Shown here: positions 3,836 to 32,000 of the stretch, one piece after another
How positions within the stretch are numbered: the stretch's first letter is position 1
Layout of the letters: each line of letters begins with the position of its first letter
Source: an uncultured Bacilli bacterium
Lineage (GTDB): Bacteria; Bacillota_I; Bacilli_A; RF39; UBA660
Length of the DNA: 32,000 bases
Assembly (NCBI GenBank): GCA_934101225.1
Contig: CAKOQK010000005.1
Span: forward strand, 27,323 to 59,322
Reading direction: 5' to 3'
Translations under genes and position numbers: made by a program
Notes under the pieces: generated by a model
Told to the model about the DNA's origin: nothing
Database searches by the model: none
What the model saw: the letters and a program-made list of their open reading frames with translations, nothing else

Positions 3836-3864
3836 TTGTATTTTTTCATTATATATGATAGAGT
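3836..3864 (+). promoter_or_regulatory. putative promoter of paralog 1 (TTGTAT - 17 - TGaTAGAGT)
   Basis: The same architecture and a conserved TGATAGAGTATA box recur at the same distance upstream of all three paralogs (also 6134-6162 and 8598-8626). Confidence 0.35.
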
Positions 3865-3887
3865 ATATCCTACTTGGAGAAATTAAT

Positions 3888-14000: not shown

Positions 14001-14759
14001 CCAGTATTCGATGGTGCAACAGTTGATGAAATTAAAGAAGAAATGGCTAAAGCTGGTATGGACTTAGATGGTAAAACAGATCTATATAATGGACGTACTG
14101 GTGAAAAATTCGAAAACCGTGTTGCTGTAGGTGTTATGTACATGATCAAATTACATCACATGGTAGATGATAAAATTCATGCTCGTTCAACTGGGCCTTA
14201 CAGTTTAGTAACACAACAACCATTAGGTGGTAAAGCACAATTTGGTGGTCAAAGATTCGGAGAAATGGAAGTTTGGGCATTATATGCGTATGGTGCTGCT
14301 CATGTATTGCAAGAAATCATGACAATTAAATCAGATGATGTAGTTGGACGTGTTAAAGTATATGAAGCCTTAGTTAAAGGACAAACTCCAAAAGGTGCTG
14401 GAATGCCTGAATCATTCAGAGTATTAATTAAAGAATTCCAAGCATTAGGACTTAATGTTGAAATGATCGACCAAGATGGTGTTGCTCATGAATTAAAAGA
14501 ATTAGAAGCCGAAGAAGATGCTGCATCAGATGCAATTACTATTGATGAAATAGATGCAAAAACTGGTGATATAGTCCATAAAAAAGATGCACCACTTCCT
14601 GAAAACTTTAGAAGACCTGAAGTAAATGCAGATTTAAATGATAATCTAGAAGATGATTATTCAGATGATGATGAAGAAGATGAAGATTTCGATGACGAAG
14701 AACCTGATTTTGAAGAATTAGAAGACATCGAAAACGGAAATCTAGAAGTGGAGGAATAA
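11082..14759 (+). CDS. rpoB: DNA-directed RNA polymerase subunit beta
   Basis: Unmistakable conserved blocks: [61 protein letters not shown] start 8 nt after GGGGTGA. Acidic C-terminal extension. Confidence 0.97.
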
Positions 14760-14761
14760 AA

Positions 14762-17700
14762 ATGTTGGAAGTTAATAATATTAAAGGTATTCGTATTAGT
14801 ATTGCTAGCCCTGAAAAGATAAGAAGTTGGTCATTTGGTGAAGTTAAAAAACCAGAGACAATTAATTATCGTACATTAAAACCAGAAAGAGATGGATTAT
14901 TCTGTGAAAAAATCTTTGGACCTACAAAAGATTTTGAATGTTCATGTGGTAAATATAAAAGATTAAGATATAAAAACGTAGTTTGTGATAGATGTGGTGT
15001 AGAAGTTACTCGTTCTAAAGTACGTCGTGAACGTATGGGACACATAGAGCTTGCTGCACCTTGCTCTCACATCTGGTTCTTCAAAGGTGTTCCATCAAAA
15101 ATGGGATTAGTACTAGATATGTCTCCAAGAGAACTTGAAGAAGTATTATATTTCGTATCATACGTAGTAATTAATCCGGGAACAGCTCCACTAGAGAAAA
15201 AACAAACCCTATCAGATAAAGAATATCGTGCATATTATGAAAAATATGGTAATTCATTTGAAGTAGGTATGGGTGCTGAAGCAATCCAAAAATTATTAAA
15301 AGAAGTAGACGTCGATAAAGAAATTGAAAAATTACGTGCTGAATTAGATGGAGCAACTGGTCAAAAACGTATCCGTTTAGTTAAGAGATTAGACTGTTTA
15401 GTAGCGTTCCAAACATCAGGAAATAAACCTGAATGGATGGTATTAGACGTAATTCCTGTAATTCCACCGGATTTAAGACCAATGATTCAATTAGATGGTG
15501 GTAGATTTGCAACATCTGACTTAAACGATTTATATCGTCGTATCATTAATCGTAACAATCGTTTAAAGAAATTGTTAGAGCTTGGTGCTCCATCAATAAT
15601 TGTTCAAAATGAAAAACGTATGTTACAAGAAGCAGTAGATACATTATTTGATAACGGTAGACGTGGAAGAAGTGTAAGCGGTGCAGGTAATCGTGCATTA
15701 AAATCATTATCTTCTATGTTAAAAGGTAAACAAGGACGTTTCCGTCAAAACTTATTAGGTAAACGTGTTGATTACTCTGGTCGTTCAGTTATCGTAGTAG
15801 GACCAAATTTAAAAATGTATGAATGTGGTCTTCCAAAAGATATGGCTTTAGAACTATTTAAACCACATGTAATTAATGGTTTAGTAGAAAGAGGCCTAGC
15901 TCACAACATTAAAGGGGCAAAAAAATTAATAGATAATAAAGATGACTGTGTATGGGATGTAGTTGAAGATGTAATTACTGAACATCCAGTTATGCTTAAC
16001 CGTGCCCCAACATTACATAGACTTGGTATTCAAGCATTCGAACCAAAATTAGTTGGTGGTAAAGCTATTAGATTACACCCACTAGTATGTGCTGCATTTA
16101 ATGCCGATTTCGACGGCGACCAAATGGCAGTTCACGTACCAATTAGTGAAGAAGCTAAAGCAGAAGCAAGAATCTTAATGTTAGGTGCTAATAACATCTT
16201 AAAACCATCAGATGGTAAACCAATCGTTACTCCATCACAAGATATGGTATTAGGAAATTATTACATCACATTAGAATATGCTGGAGAACCAAACGAAGGT
16301 AAAGTTTATAAAAATTCAAATGAAGCATTAATGGCTTATGAAAGAAGAGAAATAACTTTACATACAAGAATCGCTCTTCCAGTTAAATCATTTAAATATA
16401 AAATATTTGCAGATGATGTTAAAGATAAATATTTAGTTACAACAGCTGGTAAATTATTATTTAACGAAATATTACCAGATACTTATCCATTTATTAATGA
16501 ACCAACTAAAGACAATATTGAAGGGTTAACACCAAACAAGTATTTCTTAGAAATGGGAACTAATATTCCTGAAGCAATTAAAGCTATGCCTTTAACACCA
16601 GCGTTTGCTAAAAAGACATTACAACAAATAATTGCTCAAATATTTAAACGTTATAAAACAACAGAAACATCTATGATGCTAGATAGATTAAAAGATTTAG
16701 GATTTAAATATTCTACAATTTCAGGTATCACATTCAGTATTATGGATATTATGACTAGTCAACATAAACAAGAATATATTGCTGCTGGTCAAGAAAAGGT
16801 TAATAAAATAAATAAACAATTCCAAAGAGGTTTAATTACTGATTTAGAAAGACATAATTCAGTATGTGCTGTATGGAATGAAGTAAGAAGTCAAGTAGAA
16901 GCAGAGTTAAAAGATATTGCTGCCACAAACCCAACAAATCCAATATTTATCATGATGTCATCTGGTGCTCGTGGTTCATTAAACCAATTTACCCAAATGG
17001 CAGGTATGCGTGGATTAATGGCTAAACCAAACGGTGATGCAGTAGAAATTCCAATTTTAACATCACTTTATGAAGGACACTCAGTTAACGAATTCTTCGT
17101 TAATACTCACGGTGCTCGTAAAGGATCTGCCGACACAGCTCTTAAGACAGCCGATTCAGGTTACTTAACAAGAAGACTTGTAGATGTTGGTCAAGATATA
17201 ATTATTAAAGAAGAAGATTGTGGTTGTACATCAGGCTTAATAGTATCAGACTTTATTAACGACAGTGATGGCTCAGTTATTGAATCAATGGCTGAAAGAA
17301 TCGTTGGTAGATATGCTGCTAAAAAGGTTATCAATCCCGAAACTAAAGAAGTTATTGTTGATAAAGGTGAAGCAATTACAGAAAGTATTGCAAGCAAGAT
17401 TGTTAAAGCAGGTATTACAAAAGTTGAAATCAGAAGCGTATTAACTTGTAAGAGTGAACACGGAATTTGTCAAAAATGTTATGGTTACAACCTAGCAACT
17501 GGTAACTTAGTTGAAACAGGTGAAGCTGTAGGTATTATGGCTGCTCAATCAATCGGTGAACCAGGTACACAGTTAACACTTCGTACATTCCATGCCGGTG
17601 GTGTAGCTTCAGAAGAAGATATCACTCAAGGTTTACCAAGAGTTGAAGAAGTATTCGAAGCACGTCGTCCAAAAGGAAAAGCAACAATTGCTGAAATTAC

Positions 17701-18484
17701 TGGTAAAGTTTCTAAAATAGAAGAATCTTCTGGGAAATGGAAAGTAACTGTTATGAACGATAATGAAGCTAGAGAACATACAACAAGTTATGGTGCTAAA
17801 CTAAGAGTAGAAGTAGGATCAGAAGTTAATGCTGGTGATAGATTAACTGAAGGTATTATTGCACCTAAAGAATTACTTGCAGTTACTGATCCAATTACAA
17901 CTCAAGAATATATCTTAAAAGAAATTCAAAAGGTATATAAATCACAAGGTGTTGATATTGCTGATAAACACGTTGAAGTTATTGCATCAAGAATGATTAA
18001 TAAGATTAGAATAACTGATGCTGGTGATACTGACATGGTAGCAGGTTTAACAGTTAGTATTAGAGAATTTGCTAAAAAGAATAAACCAATTATTCTTGAA
18101 GGTAAAGTTCCTGCTAAAGGTTATCCAATTATTTTAGGTATTACAAAATCAAGTTTAGAAACTGATTCATTCTTATCAGCTGCATCATTCCAAGAAACAA
18201 CAAGAGTATTAACAGATGCTGCTATTAAAGGAAAAGTTGATGAATTAAGAGGCTTAAAAGAAAATGTTATTTTAGGTAAATTAATTCCCGCTGGTACTGG
18301 TGCCAGACAATATGCTGATGTAGATATAACATTAGAAAAAGAGTTTTTATCAGATGAACCAAGTGAGGTATTAGAAGAAGAATTCTTAGATAATGAAGAA
18401 CAACCAAATATCGAAGTTAATGAAGTAGAAGAAAACGCTTCAGAAAATAACGAAGAAACTACTGAAACTAGCGATAATCAATAA
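14762..18484 (+). CDS. rpoC: DNA-directed RNA polymerase subunit beta'
   Basis: Zn-finger CxCGK...CxxCGVEV, catalytic [12 protein letters not shown], and the trigger-loop/bridge-helix blocks. The ATG lies 2 nt after the rpoB stop, with GGAGGA inside the rpoB 3' end. Confidence 0.97.
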
Positions 18485-18493
18485 TATTAAAAG

Positions 18494-18520
18494 CTAAGAT
18501 AGAAATATCTTAGTTTTTTT
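18494..18520 (+). terminator. rho-independent terminator of rpoBC
   Basis: Perfect 8-bp stem CTAAGATA / TATCTTAG with a GAAA tetraloop, followed by TTTTTTT. Confidence 0.75.
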
Positions 18521-18538
18521 GTTGTTAAAATCAAGTCA

Positions 18539-18560
18539 TATGTTCGTGTTTTATGTTCGT
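18539..18560 (+). promoter_or_regulatory. 9-nt direct repeat TATGTTCGT x2 just upstream of the array promoter (possible regulator site)
   Basis: TATGTTCGT occurs at 18539-18547 and 18552-18560 (13-nt period), ending 6 nt before the -35. It stands out in AT-rich DNA. Confidence 0.25.
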
Positions 18561-18566
18561 ATTTTA

Positions 18567-18595
18567 TTGACATTTTTAAGCAAAAATGGTAGTAT
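18567..18595 (+). promoter_or_regulatory. promoter of the AAA+/VWA array (TTGACA - 17 - TGgTAGTAT)
   Basis: Consensus -35 at 18567-18572, 17-nt spacer, extended TG, -10 TAGTAT at 18590-18595. Its position argues against the tracked ATG at 18586 as the start codon. Confidence 0.5.
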
Positions 18596-18618
18596 ATAAC
18601 GCAAAAGAGGGGTATTGG

Positions 18619-20505
18619 ATGAATAAGAATAGTTTTGAATTAACTTTACTTAGTGAAGGACAAATATGGGGTAATGATAAAGAAAGACAATTAGATGTAA
18701 TAAGAAAGTACGGAATAAAAGCTGCAATTACTGATTTATGTATTTTAACAGGTGGTTATTTGTGTGAAGATACTATAGATGAAGATAGATCTTTAACTGG
18801 TAGAACTAGTTGCTTCTGGACTAGATCTGATGATGGCGATAATGATGTCCGCGAGGTCGATGTGGATGGTGATAGGGTCGACGTATACAGGTATAAACGC
18901 TATGGTGCTGTTCGCCCAGCCTTGCAATCTTCTGTAATCTTTTCCCAAATCTCCCCGAACAAAGTGAGTGGATACAATGGAACGGAAGAGGTTGAATTCG
19001 GAAAATATCCTCAAAATGCTGCTGATTCAAGAATGCAAAATATACTAGAGTCAGAGTATAATAGAGGAATGAGTAAAACTGGAAGAAGTTACACATTTGA
19101 TTCTGTAACAGATTATGACTGTGATACAGGATTTAAACCTGTAACCTATGAAGAATACGAATATCAAGGAAAAGCATATATTCGTATAAAAGCAAACTTT
19201 TATTGTGCTGGTTATAAATTCATGCTTTCAAATGGTGTCGAATATAAAAATGGTGATTATGTTTGGGTAGAAGTGTCTCCTGTAAAATGGTTAATAGATG
19301 ACGAAAACAACCAATTAATTTCAAAAAAAGGATTAGTTTCTGGTATAAGATTTCTTGATAAAAGAACTAATTATAAAGGTGATTTTGATAGAACAGAAAT
19401 GAAAGAATATCTTGATAAATATATGGTTAAAGATTTATTTCAATCAGTAGATTTTGAATATTTACAAGATATGGAATATTCAATAGATAAAAGTGAAAAT
19501 ATCAAAAAAACTAATCCATATAATTTAAGTTTTAATAAAGTAAGTGAAGAAGATATAATAAAAGGAGCAATAGAAAGTGGAGTTGCAGTATTTTTACATG
19601 GTCCATCATCTGAAGGTAAATCAGCAAGAGTTAAACAAATAGATCCCTCTTGTGAAATAATATATTTGAGAAATGCTGCTCCAGATAGTTTAAATGGTAA
19701 AAGTGTTTATAATTCAGAAACAGGTGAAATGATAGATGTTCCACCAACTTGGCTAAAAAAATTACAAGCTAAGTGTTCAGAAGAACCAAATAGACTTCAT
19801 ATATTATTCTTTGATGAAATAACAAATGCCTTACCAAGTATTCAAGGTATAGCGTTTAATATAGTTTTAGATCGAGAGGTAAATGGTATTTGGAAATTAC
19901 CAGATAATGCTAGAATAGTAGCTGCAGGAAATGATATGAAAGATTCTCTAGCAGCAAACCAATTAGCAGAACCATTATTTAATAGATTCGCTCACGTATA
20001 CATAAAAACAACTACTGAAAGTTGGTTAAAATGGGCGAGTGAACATAATATTCATCCAGCCATATATTCATATATAGCTTATAAAAATGGCGAAACACTT
20101 CGAAGTAAGTATGATGGAGAAAAACCTAATGCTGATCCAAGAAAATGGGAAATGGCTTCTAAAATGCTTTATGCAACAGGAAGTCCAGAAATGTTAAGGG
20201 CATTAGTAGGTGAAGATATAACAAGAGAATTTATTGAGTTTTGTAAACAAGAAGTAATAACATTGGAAGATGTTATAAATAAAAATTATACTGATAAAGA
20301 TATTGAATCATTAAATACCGCCCAAAGATATGCAACTACAATGGGATTATCACAAGTAGAAGAATCAAATTTAGAAATAGTTAGAAACTTTACATCAAAG
20401 TTAGGCTCCGAATTTAAAGCTATATTCGATGCTTTATGGACACATAGCGATGAATCAAGAATAGAAATAATCGCTGAATTAAATATAAATAAAAAAAGAA
20501 GGTGA
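18619..20505 (+). CDS. fusion protein A1: variable N-terminal DUF6273-like domain + MoxR/AAA_5-type AAA+ ATPase (628 aa from the ATG at 18619)
   Basis: RBS AAAGAGGGG lies 7 nt before the ATG at 18619. Walker A GPSSEGKS; Walker B ILFFDEITNA (DEINRA-like); sensor-1 IVAAGND; PLFNRF Arg-finger region. N-domain motifs TKAAITDLCILTG, FWTRSDD, AVRPAL, VEFGKYPQ, VKWLIDD. Confidence 0.85.
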   Translation: MNKNSFELTLLSEGQIWGNDKERQLDVIRKYGIKAAITDLCILTGGYLCEDTIDEDRSLTGRTSCFWTRSDDGDNDVREVDVDGDRVDVYRYKRYGAVRPALQSSVIFSQISPNKVSGYNGTEEVEFGKYPQNAADSRMQNILESEYNRGMSKTGRSYTFDSVTDYDCDTGFKPVTYEEYEYQGKAYIRIKANFYCAGYKFMLSNGVEYKNGDYVWVEVSPVKWLIDDENNQLISKKGLVSGIRFLDKRTNYKGDFDRTEMKEYLDKYMVKDLFQSVDFEYLQDMEYSIDKSENIKKTNPYNLSFNKVSEEDIIKGAIESGVAVFLHGPSSEGKSARVKQIDPSCEIIYLRNAAPDSLNGKSVYNSETGEMIDVPPTWLKKLQAKCSEEPNRLHILFFDEITNALPSIQGIAFNIVLDREVNGIWKLPDNARIVAAGNDMKDSLAANQLAEPLFNRFAHVYIKTTTESWLKWASEHNIHPAIYSYIAYKNGETLRSKYDGEKPNADPRKWEMASKMLYATGSPEMLRALVGEDITREFIEFCKQEVITLEDVINKNYTDKDIESLNTAQRYATTMGLSQVEESNLEIVRNFTSKLGSEFKAIFDALWTHSDESRIEIIAELNINKKRR

Positions 20506-20511
20506 AAATAA

Positions 20512-22410
20512 ATGATGGATTATGAATTAACTTTACTTAGTGAAGGACAAATATGGGGAAATGACAAAGAAAATCAATTAGAAGTTCTAAAAAAATATGG
20601 AACAAAAGCTGCAATTACAGATTTATGTATTTTAACTGGTAGTTGTTTACGTAAAGATACTATAGATGAAGATAGATCTTTGGCTGGTAGAACTAGTTGG
20701 TTTTGGACTAGATCTGATGATGATGATAATGATGTCCGCGCGGTCAATAAGGATGGTAATGGGGACATCGGTTTTAGGTATGGACGCTATGCTGCTGTTC
20801 GCCCAGCTTTGCAATCTTCTGTAATCTTTTCTCAAATCTCCCCGAACAAAGTGAGTGGATACAATGGAACGGAAGAGGTTGAATTCGGAAAATATCCTCA
20901 AAATGCTGCTGATTCAAGAATGCAAAATATACTAGAGTCAGAATATAAAAGAGGAATGAGTAAAACTGGAAGAAGTTACACATTTGATTCTGTAAAATAT
21001 AATGACTATGATACAGGATTTAAACCTGTAACTTATGAAGAATACGAATATCAAGGAAAGGAATATATTCGTATAAAAGCAAACTCTTATTGTTATAATG
21101 GCGATAAATTCATGCTTTCAAATGGCGCCTGTTATAAAGATGGTGATTATGTTTGGGTAGAAGTATCACCGGTTAAATGGTTGATAGATGATAAAGCAGG
21201 AATTTTAATTTCAAAAAAAGGATTAGTTTCTGGTATAAGATTTCTTGATAGTAAAACTGATTATGAAGGTGATTTTAATAGAACAGAAATGAAGGAATAT
21301 CTTGATAAATATATGGTTAAAGATTTATTTCAATCAGTAGATTTTGAATATTTACAAGATATGGAATATTCAATAGATAAAAGTGAAAATATCAAAAAAA
21401 CTAATCCATATAATTTAAGTTTTAATAAAGTAAGTGAAGAAGATATAATAAAAGGAGCAATAGAAAGTGGAGTCGCTGTATTTTTACATGGTCCATCATC
21501 TGAAGGAAAATCAGCAAGAGTTAAAGAAATAGATCCAACTTGTGAAATTATATATTTAAGAAATGCTACTCCAGATAGTTTAAATGGTAAAAGTGTTTAT
21601 AATTCAGAAACAGGTGAAATGATAGATGTTCCACCAACTTGGCTTAAAAAATTACAAGCTAAATGTGACCAAGAGCCAAATAGACTTCATATATTATTTT
21701 TTGATGAAATAACAAATGCCTTACCAAGTATTCAAGGAATTGCGTTTAATATAGTTTTAGATCGAGAAGTAAATGGTATTTGGAAATTACCAGATAATGC
21801 CAGAATAGTAGCTGCAGGAAATGATATGAAAGATTCTCTAGCAGCTAATCAACTAGCAGAACCATTATTTAATAGATTTGCTCATGTATATATCAAAACA
21901 ACTACTGAAAGTTGGTTAAAATGGGCAAGCGAAAATAACATCCATCCAGCAATATATTCATACATTGCTTATAAAAATGGTGAAACACTTCGAAGTAAGT
22001 ATGATGGAGAAAAACCTAATGCTGATCCAAGAAAATGGGAAATGGCTTCTAAAATGCTTTATGCAACTGGAAGTCCAGAAATGTTAAGGGCATTAGTAGG
22101 TGAAGATATAACAAGAGAATTTATTGAATTTTGTAAACAAGAGGTAATAACATTAGAAGATGTAATAAATGAAAATTATACTGATAAAGATATTGAATCA
22201 TTAAATACAGCCCAAAGATATGCAACAACTATGGGATTATCGCAAGTAGATGAAGCCAATTTAGAAATAGTTAGAAACTTTACATTAAAGTTAGGCTCCG
22301 AATTTAAAGCTTTATTCGATGCCATATGGACACACGGTGATGAATCAAGATTAGAAATAATCGCCGAGTCAAAACTTATTGAAAAATCGTTAGGAGGTAA
22401 AAAGCTATAA
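20512..22410 (+). CDS. fusion protein A2: variable N-domain + MoxR/AAA_5-type AAA+ ATPase (632 aa)
   Basis: Same architecture as A1, with a near-identical ATPase half and a distinct C-terminal tail (AESKLIEKSLGGKKL). AAGGTGA RBS. Confidence 0.88.
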   Translation: MMDYELTLLSEGQIWGNDKENQLEVLKKYGTKAAITDLCILTGSCLRKDTIDEDRSLAGRTSWFWTRSDDDDNDVRAVNKDGNGDIGFRYGRYAAVRPALQSSVIFSQISPNKVSGYNGTEEVEFGKYPQNAADSRMQNILESEYKRGMSKTGRSYTFDSVKYNDYDTGFKPVTYEEYEYQGKEYIRIKANSYCYNGDKFMLSNGACYKDGDYVWVEVSPVKWLIDDKAGILISKKGLVSGIRFLDSKTDYEGDFNRTEMKEYLDKYMVKDLFQSVDFEYLQDMEYSIDKSENIKKTNPYNLSFNKVSEEDIIKGAIESGVAVFLHGPSSEGKSARVKEIDPTCEIIYLRNATPDSLNGKSVYNSETGEMIDVPPTWLKKLQAKCDQEPNRLHILFFDEITNALPSIQGIAFNIVLDREVNGIWKLPDNARIVAAGNDMKDSLAANQLAEPLFNRFAHVYIKTTTESWLKWASENNIHPAIYSYIAYKNGETLRSKYDGEKPNADPRKWEMASKMLYATGSPEMLRALVGEDITREFIEFCKQEVITLEDVINENYTDKDIESLNTAQRYATTMGLSQVDEANLEIVRNFTLKLGSEFKALFDAIWTHGDESRLEIIAESKLIEKSLGGKKL

Positions 22411-22802
22411 TGAAAAATAAAAAAGAAATTTTCTTATCTTATATTAAAGCAAATGTTGTACCAATATTAGTTGATTTTATGTCTGGTAAAGATCTGCCTG
22501 ATGCTACTATATTGTCATCTAATATAGATGTAAAAGAATTAAACGGTCATTATGAGGGAAAAAATTTTGTTCCGCCCAAATGGCTTAATGAAATACTTAA
22601 TTCAAATACCAGTAAAATACTAGTGATTGATAAAATAGATATAATTTCTAAAGAAGAACAAATGAAATTTGTTGAAATATTAAAATATCGAAAAGTATCT
22701 ACCTTTGAATTCCCAAAAAACTGTATAATAATTGTTACTGCAAATGAAATTAACAAAGATAAAATAAATGAAGAAATACTTTCATTAGTAGCACAAATTT
22801 AG
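22410..22802 (+). CDS. B1: 130-aa minimal AAA-core paralog with degenerate Walker A and Walker B (predicted inactive)
   Basis: Aligns by eye to the ATPase core of the A proteins. VPPKWLNEIL matches VPPTWLKKLQ; ILVIDKID matches ILFFDEIT; IIIVTANE matches RIVAAGND. The P-loop position reads FMSGKD. TAATG stop/start overlap with A2. Confidence 0.75.
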   Translation: MKNKKEIFLSYIKANVVPILVDFMSGKDLPDATILSSNIDVKELNGHYEGKNFVPPKWLNEILNSNTSKILVIDKIDIISKEEQMKFVEILKYRKVSTFEFPKNCIIIVTANEINKDKINEEILSLVAQI

Positions 22803-22811
22803 GAGTAAATT

Positions 22812-24206
22812 ATGAAATATGATATAGAATCATTAAAAAGAAAAATGCTTGTAAAATATCCATTTTTTGGAAGTGTTGTGGCAGGAGTAGAATATATAGA
22901 AGATAATGAAATATCAACTGCAGCAACTGATGGAGAAAAAATATACTATAACCCTAATTTTTTAAATAATATATCAAAAGAAGAACAAACTTTTGTATTT
23001 GCTCACGAAGTGTGCCATATTGCTTTTAATCATATTTTAAGAAGCGAAGGAAAAGATGAGGACATTTGGAATATTGCAACCGATGCTGTCATAAATCAGT
23101 TTCTAAAAAAAGATGGATTACCACTTGCTAAAGGTGGAGTAGATATAGAAGAAGCAATAAATTATAATGCTGAAGATTTATACAAATTATTATTGAAAAA
23201 CCAAAATCAAAATGGACAAAGTAATAATCAAAACACAGGTAATTCAAACAATCATCAAAAAAATAACGAACATAAAAATTCAAACGAATCGAGTTCTAAT
23301 GAACAACAAGAAACAGAAAGTAATCAAACAAGTAACAATAGCAATCATGAAAATGAAGAAAAAAATAATGTTAGTCATAATACTCATAATTTGTGGAAAG
23401 ATGCTGTAAAAAAGCATAAAAAGCAACAGGAAAAATCTAACGAAAATAATAATCAAAATCAAGAAAAAGATAACAATCAAATTGAAAAGAAACAAAAAGA
23501 ACTTGAAAATTTGGGTGAAAAAAATGCATTCAAGAAAAATAGAGATGTCAAGAAAAAACAATTAGAAGAGTTGAAAGAAGCTATTTCAAAACAAGCTTCA
23601 AAAGCAGGTAACTCAACGAATAGTGATATTAGAACAGTTAACGATATAGGTTATGCTAAGCCTTTAATTGATTGGAGATACATTTTGAAAGAAGCTATAA
23701 AATATGATGTTGATTGGTCTTATAAAAATGCTACCATTGAAAATGGAGTTGTTAGTGCAAACCTAGAAGAACAACCTTTCCCTGAAACAGAAATTGTTTT
23801 GGATACAAGTGGATCAATAAATGAAGTGCTTTTAAGAAATTTTTTAAGAGAATGCAAAAATATTTTAAAATATTCAAAACTAAAAGTTGGCTGTTTTGAT
23901 ACTAAGTTTTATGGTTTTACTGAAATAAGAACTGAAGATGATTTAGAGAATATGAAATTTTTAGGCGGCGGTGGCACTAGTTTTAATGCTGCTGTAAATG
24001 CATTCTCAAGACGTGTTGAAAATAAAATAGTGTTTACCGATGGAGAAGCATCAATGCCTAAAATGACACTTGATGCAGTTTGGATCGTGTTTGGCAATAA
24101 AAAAATAAATCCTAAAGGTGGAAAAGTAATAAATATTACTCAAGAACAATTAGATAGATTATATTCTTTTGAAACAAAAAATGCGTACAAAAGAAAAACT
24201 AGATAA
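22812..24206 (+). CDS. C1: DUF2201-type protein, putative HExxH metallopeptidase N-domain + low-complexity linker + VWA domain
   Basis: YPFFGSV...TAATDGEKIYYNP...FAHEVCHIAFNHILR...WNIATDAVIN is the DUF2201_N pattern. C-terminal VLDTSGS (DxSxS MIDAS), GGGGTSF and FTDGEA are VWA motifs. The N/Q/S/E/K-rich linker covers about residues 128-260. Confidence 0.85.
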   Translation: MKYDIESLKRKMLVKYPFFGSVVAGVEYIEDNEISTAATDGEKIYYNPNFLNNISKEEQTFVFAHEVCHIAFNHILRSEGKDEDIWNIATDAVINQFLKKDGLPLAKGGVDIEEAINYNAEDLYKLLLKNQNQNGQSNNQNTGNSNNHQKNNEHKNSNESSSNEQQETESNQTSNNSNHENEEKNNVSHNTHNLWKDAVKKHKKQQEKSNENNNQNQEKDNNQIEKKQKELENLGEKNAFKKNRDVKKKQLEELKEAISKQASKAGNSTNSDIRTVNDIGYAKPLIDWRYILKEAIKYDVDWSYKNATIENGVVSANLEEQPFPETEIVLDTSGSINEVLLRNFLRECKNILKYSKLKVGCFDTKFYGFTEIRTEDDLENMKFLGGGGTSFNAAVNAFSRRVENKIVFTDGEASMPKMTLDAVWIVFGNKKINPKGGKVINITQEQLDRLYSFETKNAYKRKTR

Positions 24207-24246
24207 ATTAAATATAATAAATGTTTCAAAAAGAAGGTGAAAATAA

Positions 24247-26151
24247 ATGATAAATTATGAATTAACTTTACTTAGTGAAGGACAAATATGGGGAAATGAT
24301 AAAGAAAATCAATTAAAAGTTCTAAAAAAATATGGAACAAAAGCTGCAATTACAGATTTATGTATTTTAACAGGTCGTTATTTGTGTGAAAATACTATAG
24401 ATGAAGATAGAACTTTAACTGGTAGAACTGGTTGGTTTTGGACTAGATCTGATGATGGCGATAATGATGTCCGCGCGGTCAATAAGTATGGTAATAGGGC
24501 CAACATAATAAAGAATGCACGCTATGGCACCGTCCGCCCAGCCTTGATATCATCTAGTGTATTCTCACAAATCTCCTCGAACAGAGTGAGTGGATACAAT
24601 GGAACGGAAGAGGTTGAATTCGGAGAATATCCTCAAAATGCTACTGATTCAAGAATGCAAAATATACTAGAAAAAGAATATAATAGAGGAATGAATAAAA
24701 CGGGAAGAAGTTACACATTTGATTCTGCAAAATATGATGACAGTAATACAGGATTTAAACATGTAACCTATGAAGAATACGAATATCAAGGGAAGAAATA
24801 TATTCGTGTAAAAGCAAACTTTTATTGTTTTGGTGGCGGTAAATTCATGCTTTCAAATGGTGTCGAATATAAAAATGGTGATTATGTTTGGACAGAAGTA
24901 TCACCAGTTAAATGGCTAATAGATGATGAAAACAAGCAATTAATTTCCAAATATGGATTAGTTTCAGGTATAAGATTTCTTGATAAATATAATGAATATA
25001 ATGGAGATTTTAATAAAACTGAAATGTATGAATATCTTAATAAATATATGGTTAAAGATTTATTTCAGTCACTTAATCTTGAATATTTACAAGATATGGA
25101 ATATTCAATAGATAAAAGTGAAAATATCAAAAAAACTAATCCATATAATTTAAGTTTTAATAAAGTAAGTGAAGAAGATATAATAAAAGGAGCAATAGAA
25201 AGTGGAGTTGCAGTATTTTTACATGGTCCATCATCTGAAGGTAAATCAGCAAGAGTTAAACAAATAGATCCCTCTTGTGAAATAATATATTTGAGAAATG
25301 CTGCTCCAGATAGTTTAAATGGTAAAAGTGTTTATAATTCAGAAACAGGTGAAATGATAGATGTTCCACCAACTTGGCTAAAAAAATTACAAGCTAAGTG
25401 TTCAGAAGAGCCAAACAGACTTCATATATTGTTCTTTGATGAAATAACAAACGCGTTACCAAGTATTCAAGGAATTGCTTTTAATATTGTACTAGATCGA
25501 GAAGTAAATGGAATATGGAAATTACCTGATAATGCTAGAATAGTAGCTGCTGGAAACGATATGAAAGATTCCCTAGCAGCTAATCAATTAGCAGAGCCCT
25601 TATTTAATAGATTCGCTCATGTATATATCAAAACAACTACTGAAAGTTGGTTAAAATGGGCAAGTGAAAATAACATCCATCCTGCCATTTATTCATATAT
25701 AGCTTATAAAAATGGTGAAACACTCCGAAGTAAGTATGATGGTGAGAAACCTAATGCTGATCCAAGAAAATGGGAAATGGCTTCTAAAATGCTTTATGCA
25801 ACTGGAAGTCCAGAAATGTTAAGAGCATTAGTAGGTGAAGATATAACAAGAGAATTTATTGAGTTTTGTAAACAAGAAGTAATAACATTAGAAGATGTTA
25901 TTACTAGCAATTATTCTGATAAAGATATTAAATCATTAAATACAGCCCAAAGATATGCAACAACGATGGGATTATCACAAGTAGATGAAGCAAATTTAGA
26001 AATAGTTAGAAACTTTACATTAAAGTTAGGCTCCGAATTTAAAGCTATATTTGATGCTTTATGGACACATGGCGATGAATCGAGAATAGAAATAATCGCT
26101 GAATTAAATATAAATAAAAAAAAGAAGGTGAAAATAAATGATGGATTATGA
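24247..26151 (+). CDS. fusion protein A3: variable N-domain + MoxR/AAA_5-type AAA+ ATPase (634 aa)
   Basis: First gene of module 2. The AELNINKKKKVKINDGL tail overlaps the A4 start by 14 nt. Confidence 0.88.
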   Translation: MINYELTLLSEGQIWGNDKENQLKVLKKYGTKAAITDLCILTGRYLCENTIDEDRTLTGRTGWFWTRSDDGDNDVRAVNKYGNRANIIKNARYGTVRPALISSSVFSQISSNRVSGYNGTEEVEFGEYPQNATDSRMQNILEKEYNRGMNKTGRSYTFDSAKYDDSNTGFKHVTYEEYEYQGKKYIRVKANFYCFGGGKFMLSNGVEYKNGDYVWTEVSPVKWLIDDENKQLISKYGLVSGIRFLDKYNEYNGDFNKTEMYEYLNKYMVKDLFQSLNLEYLQDMEYSIDKSENIKKTNPYNLSFNKVSEEDIIKGAIESGVAVFLHGPSSEGKSARVKQIDPSCEIIYLRNAAPDSLNGKSVYNSETGEMIDVPPTWLKKLQAKCSEEPNRLHILFFDEITNALPSIQGIAFNIVLDREVNGIWKLPDNARIVAAGNDMKDSLAANQLAEPLFNRFAHVYIKTTTESWLKWASENNIHPAIYSYIAYKNGETLRSKYDGEKPNADPRKWEMASKMLYATGSPEMLRALVGEDITREFIEFCKQEVITLEDVITSNYSDKDIKSLNTAQRYATTMGLSQVDEANLEIVRNFTLKLGSEFKAIFDALWTHGDESRIEIIAELNINKKKKVKINDGL

Positions 26152-28033
26152 ATTGACTTTACTTAGCGAAGGACAAATATGGGGAAATAATAGTGAATCT
26201 CAATTAGAAGTAATTAGCAAATATGGAACAAAAGCTGCAATTACAGATTTATGTATTTTAACTGGCAGTTGTTTATATAAAGATACTATAGATGAAGATA
26301 GATCTTTAACTGGTAGAACTAGTTGGTTTTGGACTAAATCTGATGATGATGATAATGATGTCTGCGTGGTCAATAAGTATGGTAATGGGACCAGCCTATG
26401 TAGGTATGAACGCAATGTTGCTGTTCGCCCCGTGTTGCAATCTTCTGTAATCTTTTCTCAAATCTCCCCGAACAAAGTGAGTGGATACAATGGAACAGAA
26501 GAGGTTGAATTCGGAGAATATCCTCAAAATGCTGCTGATTCAAGAATGCAAAATATATTAGAGTCAGAGTATAATAGAGGAATGAGTAAAACTGGAAGAA
26601 GTTACACATTTGATTCTGTAAAATATTATGACTATGATATAGGATTTAAACCTGCAACCTATGAAGAATACGAATATCAAGGAAAGGAATATATTCGTAT
26701 AAAAGCTAACTTTGATTTTATTGGCAATAAATTCATGCTTTCAAATGGCGCCTGTTATAGAAATGGTGATTATGTTTGGGTAGAAGTATCACCGGTTAAA
26801 TGGTTGATAGATGATAAAGCAGGAATTTTAATTTCAAAAAAAGGATTAGTTTCTGGTATAAGATTTCTTGATAGTAAAACTGATTATGAAGGTGATTTTA
26901 ATAGAACAGAAATGAAGGAATATCTTGATAAATATATGGTTAAAGATTTATTTCAATCAGTAGATTTTGAATATTTACAAGATATGGAATATTCAATAGA
27001 TAAAAGTGAAAATATCAAAAAAACTAATCCATATAATTTAAGTTTTAATAAAGTAAGTGAAGAAGATATAATAAAAGGAGCAATAGAAAGTGGAGTCGCT
27101 GTATTTTTACATGGTCCATCATCTGAAGGTAAATCAGCAAGAGTTAAACAAATAGATCCAACTTGTGAAATAATATATTTAAGAAATGCTACTCCAGATA
27201 GTTTGAATGGTAAAAGTGTTTATAATTCAGAAACAGGTGAAATGATAGATGTTCCACCAACTTGGCTAAAAAAATTACAAGCTAAATGTGACCAAGAGCC
27301 AAATAGACTTCATATATTATTTTTTGATGAAATAACAAATGCCTTACCAAGTATTCAAGGTATAGCGTTTAATATCGTACTAGATCGAGAAGTAAATGGA
27401 ATATGGAAATTACCTGATAATGCAAGAATAGTAGCCGCTGGAAATGATATGAAAGATTCCCTAGCAGCTAATCAATTAGCAGAGCCCTTATTTAATAGAT
27501 TCGCTCATGTATATATCAAAACAACTACTGAAAGTTGGTTAAAATGGGCAAGTGAAAATAACATCCATCCTGCCATTTATTCATATATAGCTTATAAAAA
27601 TGGTGAAACACTCCGAAGTAAGTATGATGGTGAGAAACCTAATGCTGATCCAAGAAAATGGGAAATGGCTTCTAAAATGCTTTATGCAACTGGAAGTCCA
27701 GAAATGTTAAGAGCATTAGTAGGTGAAGATATAACAAGAGAATTTATTGAATTTTGTAAACAAGAAGTAATAACATTAGAAGATGTAATAAATGAAAATT
27801 ATACAGATAAAGATGTTGAATCATTAAATACAGCCCAAAGATATGCAACAACTATGGGATTATCACAAGTAGATGAAGCCAATTTAGAAATAGTTAGAAA
27901 CTTTACATTAAAGTTAGGCTCCGAATATAAAGCTATATTCGATGCTTTATGGATACATGGCGATGAAAGTAAGTTAGAAAGACTTGCAGAAGCAAAACTT
28001 GCTGAAATACCTAGAGGAGGTATAAGAAGATAA
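26138..28033 (+). CDS. fusion protein A4: variable N-domain + MoxR/AAA_5-type AAA+ ATPase (631 aa)
   Basis: Second gene of module 2, with an A2-like tail (AEAKLAEIPRGGIRR). Confidence 0.88.
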   Translation: MMDYELTLLSEGQIWGNNSESQLEVISKYGTKAAITDLCILTGSCLYKDTIDEDRSLTGRTSWFWTKSDDDDNDVCVVNKYGNGTSLCRYERNVAVRPVLQSSVIFSQISPNKVSGYNGTEEVEFGEYPQNAADSRMQNILESEYNRGMSKTGRSYTFDSVKYYDYDIGFKPATYEEYEYQGKEYIRIKANFDFIGNKFMLSNGACYRNGDYVWVEVSPVKWLIDDKAGILISKKGLVSGIRFLDSKTDYEGDFNRTEMKEYLDKYMVKDLFQSVDFEYLQDMEYSIDKSENIKKTNPYNLSFNKVSEEDIIKGAIESGVAVFLHGPSSEGKSARVKQIDPTCEIIYLRNATPDSLNGKSVYNSETGEMIDVPPTWLKKLQAKCDQEPNRLHILFFDEITNALPSIQGIAFNIVLDREVNGIWKLPDNARIVAAGNDMKDSLAANQLAEPLFNRFAHVYIKTTTESWLKWASENNIHPAIYSYIAYKNGETLRSKYDGEKPNADPRKWEMASKMLYATGSPEMLRALVGEDITREFIEFCKQEVITLEDVINENYTDKDVESLNTAQRYATTMGLSQVDEANLEIVRNFTLKLGSEYKAIFDALWIHGDESKLERLAEAKLAEIPRGGIRR

Positions 28034-28425
28034 TGAAAAACAAGAAAGAAATATTATTATCATATATTAAAGCGAATGTTGCACCAATATTAGTTGATTT
28101 TATGTCTGGTAAAGATCTGCCGGATGCTACTATATTGTCATCTAATATAGATGCAAAAGAATTAAACGGTCATTATGAGGGAGAAAATTTTGTTCCGCCC
28201 AAATGGCTTAATGAAATACTTAATTCAAATACCTGTAAAATACTAGTGATTGATAAAATAGAAACAATTTCTAAAGAAGAACAAATGAAATTTATCGAAA
28301 TATTAAAATATCGAAAAGTATCTACCTTTGAATTACCAAACAACTGTATAATTATTGTTACTGCAAATGAAATTAGTAAAGATAAAATAAATGAAGAAAT
28401 ATTTTCATTAGTTGTACGAATTTGA
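28033..28425 (+). CDS. B2: 130-aa degenerate AAA-core paralog
   Basis: About 90 percent identical to B1, with the same TAATG overlap with the preceding gene. Confidence 0.75.
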   Translation: MKNKKEILLSYIKANVAPILVDFMSGKDLPDATILSSNIDAKELNGHYEGENFVPPKWLNEILNSNTCKILVIDKIETISKEEQMKFIEILKYRKVSTFELPNNCIIIVTANEISKDKINEEIFSLVVRI

Positions 28426-28435
28426 GGTGTAAGCT

Positions 28436-29889
28436 ATGAAATATGATATTGAATTATTAAAAAGAAAAATGCTTGTTAAATATCCGTTTTTCGGAAGCGT
28501 ACTAGCAAATGTATGTTATAAAGAAAACAAAGATATACCAACTGCAGGTACAGATGGGGAAACAATATATTATAATACGGAATTTTTAGAGAGATTGAGT
28601 GTTGAGGAACAAACTTTTATATTTGCCCATGAAGTGTGTCATATTGCTTTTAACCATATTTTAAGAAGTGAAGGTAAGAACCCTGAATTATGGAATATTG
28701 CTACTGATGGAGTTATTAACCAATTTTTAAAAAGAGATGGTTTAAAAATTCCACAAGGTGGTGTTGATATTGCAGAAGCTATTAATTATGATGCTGAACA
28801 ATTATATGAAAAATTATTACAAGAAAAACAACAAAGTGGACAAGGTAATCAGCAGCAAAATAGTGGTGGAAGTCAAGATGAAAATAATCAACAACAATCT
28901 CAATCACAACAGCAATGTAATTCAGGAAGTGGAAGTTTGAAAGAACAAGATAATCAATTACAAGAACATAGTTGTGGTGAATCTGGAAAATGTGTGCAAA
29001 AAGAAGATAAATCAAAACAAGATGTTGGACATGATACTCACAGTATGTGGGAACAAGCAGTAAAAAAACATAAAGAACAACAAGAAAAAACTAATAAAAA
29101 AGAGAGTTTATTAGATAAATTATTAGGAACAGATAAAGATAAAAAATCTAAAGAGAAAAATGAACTTGAAAAGAAACAGGAAGAGCTTGAAAATATGGGC
29201 GAAAAAATGCATTTAAGAAAAATCGAGATGTTAAGAAAAAACAGTTAGAAGAATTAAAAGAATCTATTTTAAAACAAGCTTCAGAAGCAGGTAACTCAAC
29301 GAATAGTGATATTAGAACAGTTAACGATATAAGTTATGCTAAGCCTTTAATTGATTGGAGATACATTTTAAAAGAAGCTATAAAATATGATGTTGATTGG
29401 TCTTATAAAAATGCTACTATTGAAAATGGAGTTGTTAGTGCAAATCTAGAAGAACAGCCTTTCCCTGAAACAGAAATTGTTTTGGATACAAGTGGATCAA
29501 TAAATGAAGTGCTTCTAAGAAATTTTTTAAGAGAATGCAAAAATATTTTAAAACATTCAAAACTAAAAGTTGGATGTTTTGATACTAAGTTTTATGGTTT
29601 TACTGAAATAAGAACTGAAGAAGATTTAGAGAATATGAAATTTTTAGGCGGCGGTGGCACCAATTTTGATGCTGCTGTAAATGCATTCTCAAGACGTGTT
29701 GAAAATAAAATAGTGTTTACCGATGGAGAAGCATCAATGCCTAAAATGACACTTGATGCAGTTTGGATCGTGTTTGGCAATAAAAAAATAAATCCTAAAG
29801 GTGGAAAAGTAATAAATATTACTCAAGAACAATTAGATAGATTATATTCTTTTGAAATAAATAATGTGTATAATAGAAAAACTAGATAA
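28436..29889 (+). pseudogene. C2: DUF2201-type metallopeptidase-like/VWA gene interrupted by a 1-nt deletion frameshift in a poly-A tract
   Basis: The 28436..29248 frame encodes the HExxH domain and linker. The VWA half (identical motifs to C1) continues in the neighbouring frame to 29889. C1 has GAAAAAAATGC (A7, 23518-23524) where C2 has GAAAAAATGC (A6, 29202-29207). Adding one A restores a ~484-aa protein. Confidence 0.7.
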
Positions 29890-29929
29890 ATTAGATTTAA
29901 TAAATGATTCAAAAAGAAGGTGAAAATAA

Positions 29930-31834
29930 ATGATGGATTATGAATTGACTTTACTTAGCGAAGGACAAATATGGGGAAATAATAGTGAACCTCAATTAGA
30001 AGTAATTAGCAAATATGGAACAAAAGCTGCAATTACTGATTTATGTATTTTAACAGGTGTTTATTTGTGTGAAGATACTATAGATGAAGATAGATCTTTA
30101 ACTGGTAGAACTAGTTGGTTTTGGACTAGATCTGATGATGGCCATAATGATGTTCTCGAGGTCGATGTGGATGGTGATAGTGCCAACATATACAGGTATA
30201 AACGCTATGATGCTGTTCGCCCAGCTTTGCAATCTTCTGTCATCTTTTCCAAAATTTCCCCGAACAGAGTGAGTGGATATAATGGAACGGAAGAGGTTGA
30301 ATTCGGAGAATATCCTCAAAATGCTGCTGATTCAATATTACAAAATATACTAGAGTCAGAATATAAAAGAGGAATGAGTAAAACTGGAAGAAGTTACACA
30401 TTTGATTCTGTAAAAGATTATGACGATAATACAGGATTTAAACCTGTAACTTATGAAGAATACGAATATCAAGGAAATAAATATATTCGTATAAAAGCTA
30501 ACTCTTCTAATTTTGGTTTCCATATATTCAAACTTTCAAATGGTGCCTGTTATAGAAATGGTGATTATGTTTGGGTTGAAGTATTACCAGTCAAATGGTT
30601 AATAGATGATGAAAATAAACAATTAATTTCCAAATATGGATTAGTTTCAGGTATAAGATTTCTTGATAGAAAAATTAATTATAAAGGTGATTTTGATAGA
30701 ACAGAAATGAAAGAATATCTTGATAAATATATGGTTAAAGATTTATTTCAATCAGTAGATTTTGAATATTTACAAGATATGGAATATTCAATAGATAAAA
30801 GTGAAAATATCAAAAAAACTAATCCATATAATTTAAGTTTTAATAAAGTAAGTGAAGAAGATATAATAAAAGGAGCAATAGAAAGTGGAGTCGCTGTATT
30901 TTTACATGGTCCATCATCTGAAGGAAAATCAGCAAGAGTTAAAGAAATAGATCCTACTTGTGAAATAATCTATTTAAGAAATGCTACTCCAGATAGTTTA
31001 AATGGTAAAAGTGTTTATAATTCAGAAACTGGTGAAATGATAGATGTTCCACCAACTTGGCTTAAAAAATTACAAGCTAAGTGTGAAAACGAACCAAATA
31101 GACTTCATATATTATTCTTTGATGAAATAACAAATGCCTTACCAAGTATTCAAGGAATTGCGTTTAATATCGTACTAGATCGAGAAGTAAATGGTATTTG
31201 GAAATTACCTGATAATGCTAGAATAGTAGCTGCAGGAAATGATATGAAAGATTCTCTAGCAGCAAACCAATTAGCAGAACCATTATTTAATAGATTCGCT
31301 CATGTATATATTAAAACAACAACTAGAAGCTGGCTAAAATGGGCAAGTGAACATGATATACATCCAGCCATATATTCATATATAGCTTATAAAAATGGTG
31401 AAACACTTCGAAGTAAGTATGATGGTGAAAAACCTAACGCTGATCCAAGAAAGTGGGAAATGGCTTCTAAAATGCTGTATGCTACAGGAAATCCTGAAAT
31501 GTTAAGGGCATTAATAGGTGAAGATATAACAAGAGAATTTATTGAGTTTTGTAAGCAAGAAGTAATAACATTAGAAGATGTAATAAATGAAAGTTATATA
31601 GATAAAGATATTAAATCATTAAATACAGCCCAAAGATATGCAACAACGATGGGATTATCACAAGTAGATGAAGCAAATTTAGAAATAGTTAGAAACTTTA
31701 CATTAAAGTTAGGCTCCGAATTTAAAGCTATATTCGATGCATTATGGACACATGGTGATGAATCAAGAATAGAAATAATCGCTGAATTAAATATAAATAA
31801 AAAAAAGAAGGTGAAAATAACTGATGGATTATGA
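29930..31834 (+). CDS. fusion protein A5: variable N-domain + MoxR/AAA_5-type AAA+ ATPase (634 aa)
   Basis: First gene of module 3, with an A1/A3-type tail and an A2/A4-type Walker A-proximal segment (mosaic). Confidence 0.88.
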   Translation: MMDYELTLLSEGQIWGNNSEPQLEVISKYGTKAAITDLCILTGVYLCEDTIDEDRSLTGRTSWFWTRSDDGHNDVLEVDVDGDSANIYRYKRYDAVRPALQSSVIFSKISPNRVSGYNGTEEVEFGEYPQNAADSILQNILESEYKRGMSKTGRSYTFDSVKDYDDNTGFKPVTYEEYEYQGNKYIRIKANSSNFGFHIFKLSNGACYRNGDYVWVEVLPVKWLIDDENKQLISKYGLVSGIRFLDRKINYKGDFDRTEMKEYLDKYMVKDLFQSVDFEYLQDMEYSIDKSENIKKTNPYNLSFNKVSEEDIIKGAIESGVAVFLHGPSSEGKSARVKEIDPTCEIIYLRNATPDSLNGKSVYNSETGEMIDVPPTWLKKLQAKCENEPNRLHILFFDEITNALPSIQGIAFNIVLDREVNGIWKLPDNARIVAAGNDMKDSLAANQLAEPLFNRFAHVYIKTTTRSWLKWASEHDIHPAIYSYIAYKNGETLRSKYDGEKPNADPRKWEMASKMLYATGNPEMLRALIGEDITREFIEFCKQEVITLEDVINESYIDKDIKSLNTAQRYATTMGLSQVDEANLEIVRNFTLKLGSEFKAIFDALWTHGDESRIEIIAELNINKKKKVKITDGL

Positions 31835-32000
31835 TTTAACTTTATTGTCTGAAGGACAAATTTGGGGAAACAGTAATGAATCTCAATTAGAAGTAATTAG
31901 AAAATATGGAACAAAAGCTGCAATTACAGATTTATGTGTTTTAACAGGTAGTTATTTATGTGCAGATACTGCTTATAATATAAAAGAAGATAGATCTTTA
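31824..32000 (+). CDS. fusion protein A6 (5' fragment, continues past the window end)
   Basis: ATG at 31824 followed by MDYDLTLLSEGQIWGNSNESQLEVIRKYGTKAAITDLCVLTG, in frame through position 32000. It overlaps the A5 stop. Confidence 0.75.
   Translation, partial: MDYDLTLLSEGQIWGNSNESQLEVIRKYGTKAAITDLCVLTGSYLCADTAYNIKEDRSL

Follow-up and report, generated by a model that had tools for sequence, protein, structure and literature searches.

The stretch analyzed here is a 32,000-nucleotide window of contig CAKOQK010000005.1 (assembly GCA_934101225.1), from an uncultured Bacilli bacterium of the RF39 lineage. It carries, directly downstream of rpoC, a tandem array of three kinds of genes that we call A, B and C. 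The A gene encodes a MoxR-like AAA+ ATPase with a variable N-terminal head, B encodes a small degenerate ATPase core, and C encodes a predicted metallopeptidase joined to a VWA domain. We conclude with high confidence that the array consists of target cassettes of a diversity-generating retroelement (DGR), in which a variable region (VR) is rewritten from a template repeat (TR) through a reverse transcriptase (RT). Our confidence that the retroelement has been lost in this species is moderate. By analogy with related systems, the most plausible function is that of an intracellular sensor-ATPase-protease conflict system. The combined reading, in which target cassettes of such a system persist in a lineage without a retroelement at the locus, is in our judgment probable.

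The DGR assignment comes from related species. In a close relative, gene calls place a 166-aa protein and an RVT_1 reverse transcriptase directly upstream of A, and an 80-nt non-coding repeat between these two genes matches codons 76-101 of A. The repeat is the TR and the matching codons are the VR. The intact RTs of relatives are about 340 aa long, carry LGNQSSQ and YMDD motifs and match RVT_1 at 6.5e-16. The gene upstream of the TR is avd-like; its match to bAvd (8.6e-5) is below the Pfam cut-off and spans the profile. The TR codes for VRAVNKNGNRNNKYRYKRNG(A/V)VRP, and AAY codons are plentiful in it. TR and VR differ almost exclusively at TR adenines, which account for 12/12 mismatches in L002, 14/14 in L019, 11/11 in L028, 10/10 in L010, 14/14 in L068 and 11/12 in L051. 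Among 110 close homologs there are 47 distinct VRs that vary mainly at codons with a TR adenine, while VR residues G8, R23, P24 and L26 are invariant. Because avd, TR and RT adjoin A in relatives, because TR/VR mismatches fall almost entirely on adenines, and because the VR diversity lies at template-adenine codons, the A-B-C triad is identified as a DGR target cassette. The canonical element is avd-TR-RT-A-B-C, an order present in at least 12 related species.

A scan of genome collections gave 77 family loci, mostly from uncultured gut Bacilli ('Tenericutes', CAG:417, CAG:605, Faecisoma) and some from Clostridia. The family is abundant in human-gut Bacilli, with 8189 representatives at an E cut-off of 1e-3 and 630 at one of 1e-30. 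Its usual state is a single A-B-C triad, often accompanied by a DGR; Clostridia carry A-C without B, and arrays with several A genes are exceptional. The amplified A-A-B-C array described in the original prediction, which had been made from the window alone, is specific to this lineage. The RT is intact in 12 species loci and fragmentary or frameshifted in 8, and none is within reach in the remainder. The relatives include a series of decaying RTs (L079-L082, L014, L006, L008, L009, L018, L025, L036) that runs from frameshifted genes through fragments to no trace. Partial RTs of 233-297 residues occur in L008, L025 and L079, and fragments of 39-110 residues in L006, L009, L014, L018 and L036. 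The fragments of L014 lie within the 2.4-kb gap between rpoC and A, and L079, whose RT is frameshifted, has non-adenine TR/VR mismatches. An association of multi-copy arrays with RT loss was considered and dropped: in a hand count of loci with at least 2.5 kb upstream of A, the RT was intact in 1/7 multi-A loci and in about 9/39 single-copy loci, which are indistinguishable proportions. Two further loci are worth recording. In L027 (2431-11863) the order is avd-TR-RT-A-B-C-A-A-A. Its four VRs are the same as one another and depart from the TR at many sites other than adenines; the locus reflects either very recent amplification or a collapsed assembly. L088 (IMG/VR UViG_3300006217_003178), a putatively viral contig from a viral collection, has a complete avd-RT-A-B-C cassette at one end.

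The window itself contains the targets and not the writer. The DGR-type RT and avd that are found in relatives are absent from its 32 kb, as is a TR, and no TR-like copy lies outside the A genes. Retroelement parts are also lacking at the array ends in strains of the same species, both at the proximal end (the window, L085 and L087), where the neighbor is always rpoC, and at the distal end (L086). No two of the five complete VRs of the window (80 nt each; Table 1) are the same, and no other 60-nt stretch of the A gene varies as much as the VR does. They were compared with the TR of L002 as a proxy, with which those of L010, L019 and L028 agree at all but 1-3 of 80 positions. Template adenines account for 53/77 VR differences against 32.5% expected (p=7.5e-11), and in A1b for 12/13. 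The remaining 24/77 are at non-adenine sites, versus 0-1 per locus in the six RT-carrying relatives. The A1b and A3a VRs retain the conserved 3' end of active loci (GTTCGCCCAGCTTTGC), and the 3' ends of the A2a and A2b VRs are altered. A1a is identical to its counterpart in a strain from a Nepal sample (L085_A1) over 900 nt (18685-19585), VR included, while the 3' halves of the two genes differ at 76 positions and rpoC is 98.3% identical. The adenine footprint, the non-adenine drift and the identical A1a VR all fit VRs that were written by a past DGR and are now under ordinary mutation and recombination.

A different account of the same VRs is that the array is an active multi-target DGR whose RT and TR lie in the unassembled array middle or at another genomic site and rewrite some or all of the VRs in trans. 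Remote DGR targets are known, with an example in Treponema (PMC5758913), and L027 shows avd, TR and RT together with a multi-A array. The preserved 3' ends in A1b and A3a, the adenine bias of A1b and the high VR diversity in the population also agree with ongoing rewriting. Against it stand the absence of RT, avd and TR from the window and from both array ends, a share of non-adenine differences that none of the six RT loci approaches, the altered 3' ends in A2a and A2b, and an A1a VR that is the same in strains from Hadza and Nepal samples. Even L027 has VRs that are mutually identical and depart from the TR at non-adenine sites. We regard an active DGR acting on the array as unlikely, though it deserves to be taken seriously, and past writing by a DGR as the better account of the window VRs.

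The A proteins consist of a head and a motor. An AlphaFold2 model of A1b (pLDDT 85) shows residues 1-275 as a compact N-terminal region, 276-298 as a disordered linker and 300-627 as an AAA+ module. The Walker A (GPSSEGKS) and Walker B (ILFFDE) motifs are intact and invariant in all A copies. The top Foldseek matches of the ATPase are NorQ and CbbQ2 (E about 3e-9; target TM-score, TMt, 0.66-0.69), so that A has both the intact Walker motifs and a fold closest to the MoxR clade of AAA+ ATPases. A1b matches phrog_1297 at 6e-48. Direct Pfam and NCBIfam searches gave nothing significant for A or B, with no Pfam family at E up to 0.01; AAA_5 is matched in 11/38 relatives, and the window A proteins are below the Pfam cut-off. 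Two types of A are distinguished by their C-terminal 25 residues. Copies with the 'b' tail (...GGxx(L/R)) have an ATGA overlap with B and correspond to the single A of relatives. The 'a' tail (...ELNINKKKKVKINDGL), which is truncated in A1a, marks the extra copy in each module. B aligns with the alpha/beta core of the ATPase in A (97.8% probability and E 7e-13 by hhalign, E 0.011 by BLASTP), lacks a P-loop (Walker A) and has DK where the Walker B of A has DE. Judged from its sequence, B is a catalytically dead paralog of the A ATPase core.

C1 matches DUF2201_N (1.4e-34) and DUF2201 (1.3e-13), both above the Pfam cut-offs, and has HEVCH and DTSGS motifs. It also matches phrog_1314 (2e-70) and, weakly, the minimal zincin MJ1213. 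The PHROG label of phrog_1314, 'HNH endonuclease', is misleading: an adjacent protein of an N4-like phage that is annotated in this way is DUF2201 by Pfam. C is a predicted zincin peptidase followed by a low-complexity linker and a VWA domain with a metal ion-dependent adhesion site (MIDAS), and thus belongs to DUF2201 and supplies the adjacent VWA/MIDAS partner of a MoxR-VWA pair. C2 has a frameshift at about 29210-29240, in the A-rich low-complexity linker, that divides it into a peptidase open reading frame (ORF) and a VWA ORF and leaves the remainder intact. The same frameshift is present in the corresponding ENA contig, and Pfam detects the two halves of C2 separately. Candidate explanations are recent pseudogene formation, a homopolymer error in the assembly and a site of phase variation. 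No hydrophobic segment or signal-like N-terminus was found in A, B or C, and each of the three is apparently cytoplasmic.

The head carries the VR at the end of its first ~105 residues, as a 26-residue segment with the pattern VRAVNKxGN...RYxRxGAVRPAL. Secondary variable patches lie at about residues 163-170, 194-200 and 229-256. Among 21 diverse family members, 4 gave sub-threshold matches to DUF6273, with a best value of 1e-4. The motif pattern of the head (...FWTRS...VRPAL) seems to resemble that of DUF6273. We tentatively assign the first 105 head residues to a distantly DUF6273-like, and hence C-type-lectin-like, scaffold on these sub-threshold matches. Work on gut phages has established DUF6273 as a C-type-lectin-like target of DGRs whose C-terminal end holds the VR (PMC10743442; PMC11792537). 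The sole BFVD match of the head model by Foldseek is a weak one (E 8e-3) to an unnamed 97-aa viral protein, and PDB sequences, searched with profiles of the head and of the full family, gave nothing credible. Some family members (P0122, P0123, P0125, P0130 and others) are 890-1020 aa long and match the query in two stretches, so that they apparently have two N-terminal heads per ATPase. Proteins that consist of the head alone also exist in the family.

Head and motor evolve differently. The ratio of non-synonymous to synonymous substitution (omega) is ~0.07 in the ATPase half (dS ~0.25, dN ~0.02), which places this half under strong purifying selection, and 0.5-0.6 in the N-terminal head half. 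Between given pairs of A copies dS shifts sharply from region to region, which points to gene conversion among them. The idea in the original prediction of a conserved engine joined to a diversifying N-terminal domain is well borne out, as the head of relatives holds a true DGR VR with avd, TR and RT upstream of A. These results also bear on a second alternative, that A, B and C form a housekeeping chaperone or maturation system like NorQD, CbbQO or BchID, with paralogs for different clients and a secondary DGR link. NorQ and CbbQ are the best structural matches, the triad is widespread in reduced-genome gut Bacilli, and many loci without a DGR lie among ordinary genes. In L014, A is conserved like rpoB and rpoC (76% versus 77-78%). 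A housekeeping recognition domain, however, would not be a DGR target with 47 VRs in 110 homologs, nor would it be expected to show the high omega of the head next to so constrained an ATPase. Copy number and gene order vary between strains of one species, the partner has a peptidase rather than a metal-insertion adaptor, and the core ATPase-DUF2201 pair is common in lytic phages. We consider a housekeeping role improbable.

The phage pair just mentioned, which also has cellular members, is among the closest known relatives of the A-C core. Members of phrog_1297 and phrog_1314 are adjacent and in the same order as A and C, for example gp16-gp15 of the N4-like Salmonella phage vB_SalP_TR2, and the pair is common in lytic N4-like and PA5oct-like phages. 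Identities are 26-31% for the ATPase and 26-29% for the DUF2201 proteins. The phage ATPase is plain (338 aa), single copy, and without a variable head, B or a DGR. These matches, the 708 phage records with a related ATPase and the full cassette on one IMG/VR contig would suit a prophage or mobile-element remnant that contains a phage ATPase-DUF2201 module with no host function. The phage homologs span the ATPase half only, a scan of 2.9 million viral contigs with a single peptide pattern found one full-length relative, the flanks examined showed neither an integrase nor structural genes of a phage, and the ATPase is under strong purifying selection. A remnant of this kind is very improbable.

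The array is uninterrupted and on one strand, with the order A1a, A1b, B1, C1, A2a, A2b, B2, C2, A3a and the start of A3b. Self-BLAST of the window shows the A-A-B-C module repeating head to tail with a period of 5.68 kb and 91.3% nucleotide identity, and the A copies are 89-94% identical in all pairs. The array runs off the window: A3b extends 1.1 kb further in ENA contig L001, where that contig ends. The number of A genes is at least 6, and every assembly breaks within the array. The same gene order is present in this ENA contig, which comes from a Hadza gut metagenome (assembly ERZ4560218). Strains of the same species (rpoC 98.2-98.9% identical) have rpoC-A-B-C-A-A... and rpoC-A-B-C-A..., on contigs that also end within the array. 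A genes likewise follow rpoC, or stand at the distal array end, in three same-species contigs from other samples. Because the copies are ~9% divergent, because the ATPase halves differ mostly at synonymous sites, and because A genes occur in contigs from other samples, we take the array to be genuine. The breaking of all contigs within the array is what an assembly artefact would also produce, but the largely synonymous divergence, the same order in two records and the different orders in other strains leave that explanation next to no probability. The ORFs match those of the original prediction, and its tandem array continuing past the window and its parts list (two N-terminally extended MoxR-like ATPases, a dead AAA core and a DUF2201 peptidase-VWA protein) have both held, the latter on Walker motif, hhalign and Pfam evidence.

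Table 1. Positions in the window of the array, its VRs and the adjoining features.
Feature	Positions	Strand	Remarks
rpoB	11082-14759		intact under table 11
rpoC	14762-18484		intact under table 11
Probable rpoC terminator	18494-18520	+	hairpin CTAAGATA-GAAA-TATCTTAG then T7; direct sequence reading
Promoter-like site	18567-18595	+	TTGACA-17-TAGTAT, TG before site; consensus match only; top score in 18300-32000
A1a (a-type tail)	18619-20505	+	variable head and MoxR-like AAA+ ATPase, 628 aa; VR 18846-18925
A1b (b-type tail)	20512-22410	+	variable head, linker and MoxR-like ATPase; VR 20733-20812
B1	22410-22802	+	130-aa degenerate ATPase core; profile alignment to A
C1	22812-24206	+	zincin-like metallopeptidase (HEVCH), N/Q/E/K-rich linker, VWA with DTSGS MIDAS
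A2a (a-type)	24247-26151	+	VR 24468-24547, most decayed VR in the window
A2b (b-type)	26138-28033	+	VR 26359-26438, conserved VR 3' end altered (CCCCGTGTTGC)
B2	28033-28425	+	89% identity to B1
C2	28436-29889	+	one frameshift; three-frame translation
A3a (a-type)	29930-31834	+	VR 30151-30230
A3b (sixth A gene, 5' part)	31821-32000	+	cut by window end; start about 31821

The gap between rpoC and A1a is 134 nt. The start of A1a at 18619 has a ribosome-binding site (AAAGAGGGG) and agrees with the public gene call; an alternative ATG at 18586 is inside the promoter-like site. That site is the best of the region, and the terminator scanner found no terminator-like site within the array, as had been predicted for a unit with a single promoter. 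The scanner requires at least 3 G-C pairs, and the hairpin after rpoC is too AT-rich to pass this rule. At the distal end of the array (L086), the last A gene is followed by the same hairpin as after rpoC, then by a decayed glycosyltransferase and ordinary genes. The recurring CTAAGATA-GAAA-TATCTTAG hairpin with its T-run lies 3' of the last A gene, at about 2085-2115 of L086. It could mean that the array expanded upstream of a pre-existing terminator, or it could be a common terminator motif of this genome. Genetic code 4 was considered and rejected, as rpoB and rpoC are intact under table 11.

The GC content of the window is 21% before rpoB and 29-35% from rpoB onward. The step, at about 11000, is sharp, and the array resembles the core genes in composition, unlike the AT-rich flank. 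This flank contains three tandem paralogs (3855-6095, 6187-8427 and 8651-10831; 746, 746 and 726 aa) with 21% GC and no Pfam match, of which the second and third are identical over about the first 175 residues. A fourth member of this family, of 730 aa and with 64% identity over the first 440 aa, is found just beyond the distal array end (L086:3082-5274). With paralogs upstream in the window and a member beyond the array end in L086, the block of rpoBC and the array is flanked on both sides by a second expanding family. The position 3' of rpoC, which the original prediction had called unusual, is neither conserved nor meaningful, since the triad of relatives is found in many contexts and near rpoBC only in L014 and L047.

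Sensors of the DGR-coupled MoxR/vWA kind are among the proposed conflict systems (PMC7159879; PMC10907252). The vWA-MoxR (VMAP/iSTAND) ternary systems (Kaur et al., 2020, PMC7159879; Dore et al., 2024, PMC10907252) resemble the A-B-C family in that a MoxR AAA+ ATPase goes together with a vWA protein, with a peptidase as output and with a DGR-rewritten domain, which has a lectin fold in them and is tentatively lectin-like in A. They are proposed to be cytoplasmic or periplasmic antigen sensors. They differ in layout. Their lectin (FGS) domain is at the C-terminus of the vWA protein, whereas the variable head of the window is at the N-terminus of the ATPase. Their third component is VMAP or iSTAND and not a 130-aa dead AAA core such as B, and their peptidase is trypsin- or caspase-like and not a zincin fused to VWA (DUF2201). 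Ternary systems are found in multicellular cyanobacteria and proteobacteria, whereas the hosts of A-B-C are small-genome gut Bacilli and some Clostridia. No VMAP/iSTAND-type component was seen with PADLOC or Pfam, where VMAP may lack a model in the libraries used, and B is the only third gene. The original prediction had likened the module to these ternary systems. Its anatomy and its diversifying sensor stand, while the ternary class in the sense of Kaur et al. does not, since the ATPase and not the vWA protein bears the head and PADLOC gave no match; the DGR link had escaped it.

Other DGR targets share single features with A. The targets of candidate phyla radiation (CPR) bacteria (Paul et al., 2017, cited in PMC10907252), in which the variable domain is of lectin type, and the 'UVR4-Midasin' class (Wu et al., 2018, PMC5758913) also join a DGR variable domain and an AAA-type ATPase in one polypeptide. 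According to Dore et al. their sensing region is C-terminal; DUF2201 or dead-AAA partners are not reported for them, and the RT lineage and host phyla differ. The DUF6273 targets of gut-phage DGRs, including 'tentaclins' (PMC10743442; PMC11792537; bioRxiv 10.1101/2024.10.15.618418), have the VR at the C-terminal end of a DUF6273-type scaffold, and in tentaclins this domain is likewise at the N-terminus of a longer protein. RT-less gut phages that retain their targets have been noted in the same studies. These phage targets are virion receptor-binding or decoration proteins with Ig-like domains, whereas the head of the window is on a predicted cytoplasmic AAA+ motor and its DUF6273 match is sub-threshold. 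Finally, NorQ-NorD, CbbQ-CbbO and BchI-BchD have in common with A and C the ATPase fold and a VWA partner with MIDAS. They serve cofactor insertion or reactivation of one fixed enzyme and have no hypervariable head and no peptidase. Full-text searches on DUF2201, DUF6273 and DGR with MoxR or von Willebrand gave no description of the A-B-C architecture. DGR-coupled MoxR/vWA systems are known, and the A-B-C architecture, its host group and the RT-less array appear to be undescribed in the literature searched.

By analogy with NorQ-NorD, CbbQ-CbbO and BchI-BchD, A would form a hexameric ring that displays the variable heads. The VWA/MIDAS domain of C would dock on this ring, as NorD does on NorQ and CbbO on CbbQ, and B may be a non-catalytic ring partner. 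In BchD a dead AAA domain is joined through a linker to a VWA domain, and B together with C would then resemble a split BchD. A, B and C have no signal peptides or membrane segments, so the heads would find their ligand inside the cell; the most plausible candidate is a protein from a phage or mobile element that has invaded. Remodeling powered by ATP would then activate the C peptidase or pass the bound target to it. The scheme parallels the one put forward for DGR-coupled MoxR/vWA systems, with the sensor placed on the motor and a VWA-fused zincin as output. In the window species, hypermutation by the RT would have given way to a set of paralogous sensors that is fixed and recombines.

Several points weigh against this interpretation. 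For the window, the TR of a different species served as proxy, and an RT could be present in the unassembled array interior or at another place in the genome. The identical 900-nt segment of A1a could stem from recent exchange between strains rather than from long stasis. The model of head residues 1-280 is good (pLDDT 92; predicted TM-score, pTM, 0.91) and has no significant PDB match, the best Foldseek E being 0.15, and the DUF6273 link consists of the sub-threshold matches in four of 21 relatives. PADLOC, which the original prediction had named together with DefenseFinder as a check, returned no match for A, B or C. In many relatives A-B-C or A-C persists without a local DGR in ordinary chromosomal contexts, and the conservation of A in L014 fits a housekeeping role too. 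With these points in the balance, we still favor DGR target cassettes of an intracellular sensor-ATPase-protease that have outlived their retroelement at this locus. A bolder version can be put forward only tentatively, namely that small-genome gut Bacilli have a cytoplasmic, programmable receptor-AAA+-protease immunity whose receptor head a retroelement ordinarily rewrites, and which in this lineage has lost its RT and has become a germline array of at least 6 fixed variants that diversify by duplication and gene conversion. In that version the head may be a scaffold not earlier solved for DGR variable regions.

DGR-coupled NTPase sensors are proposed bacterial antigen receptors and are known mainly from multicellular cyanobacteria, proteobacteria and CPR bacteria. 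The A-B-C family puts a DGR VR directly on a MoxR-type motor, partnered with a peptidase-VWA protein that occurs commonly, in plain form, in lytic phages. DUF2201 and phrog_1297/1314 thereby gain a functional context, and a cultured carrier of the A-C pair is available in Zhenpiania hominis BX12. The most interesting aspect is the RT-less array of fossil VRs. Together with the series of decaying RTs in relatives, it offers a comparison between hypermutation and gene arrays as sources of a recognition repertoire. If the bolder version is true, the family would present a natural switch between these two ways of building such a repertoire.

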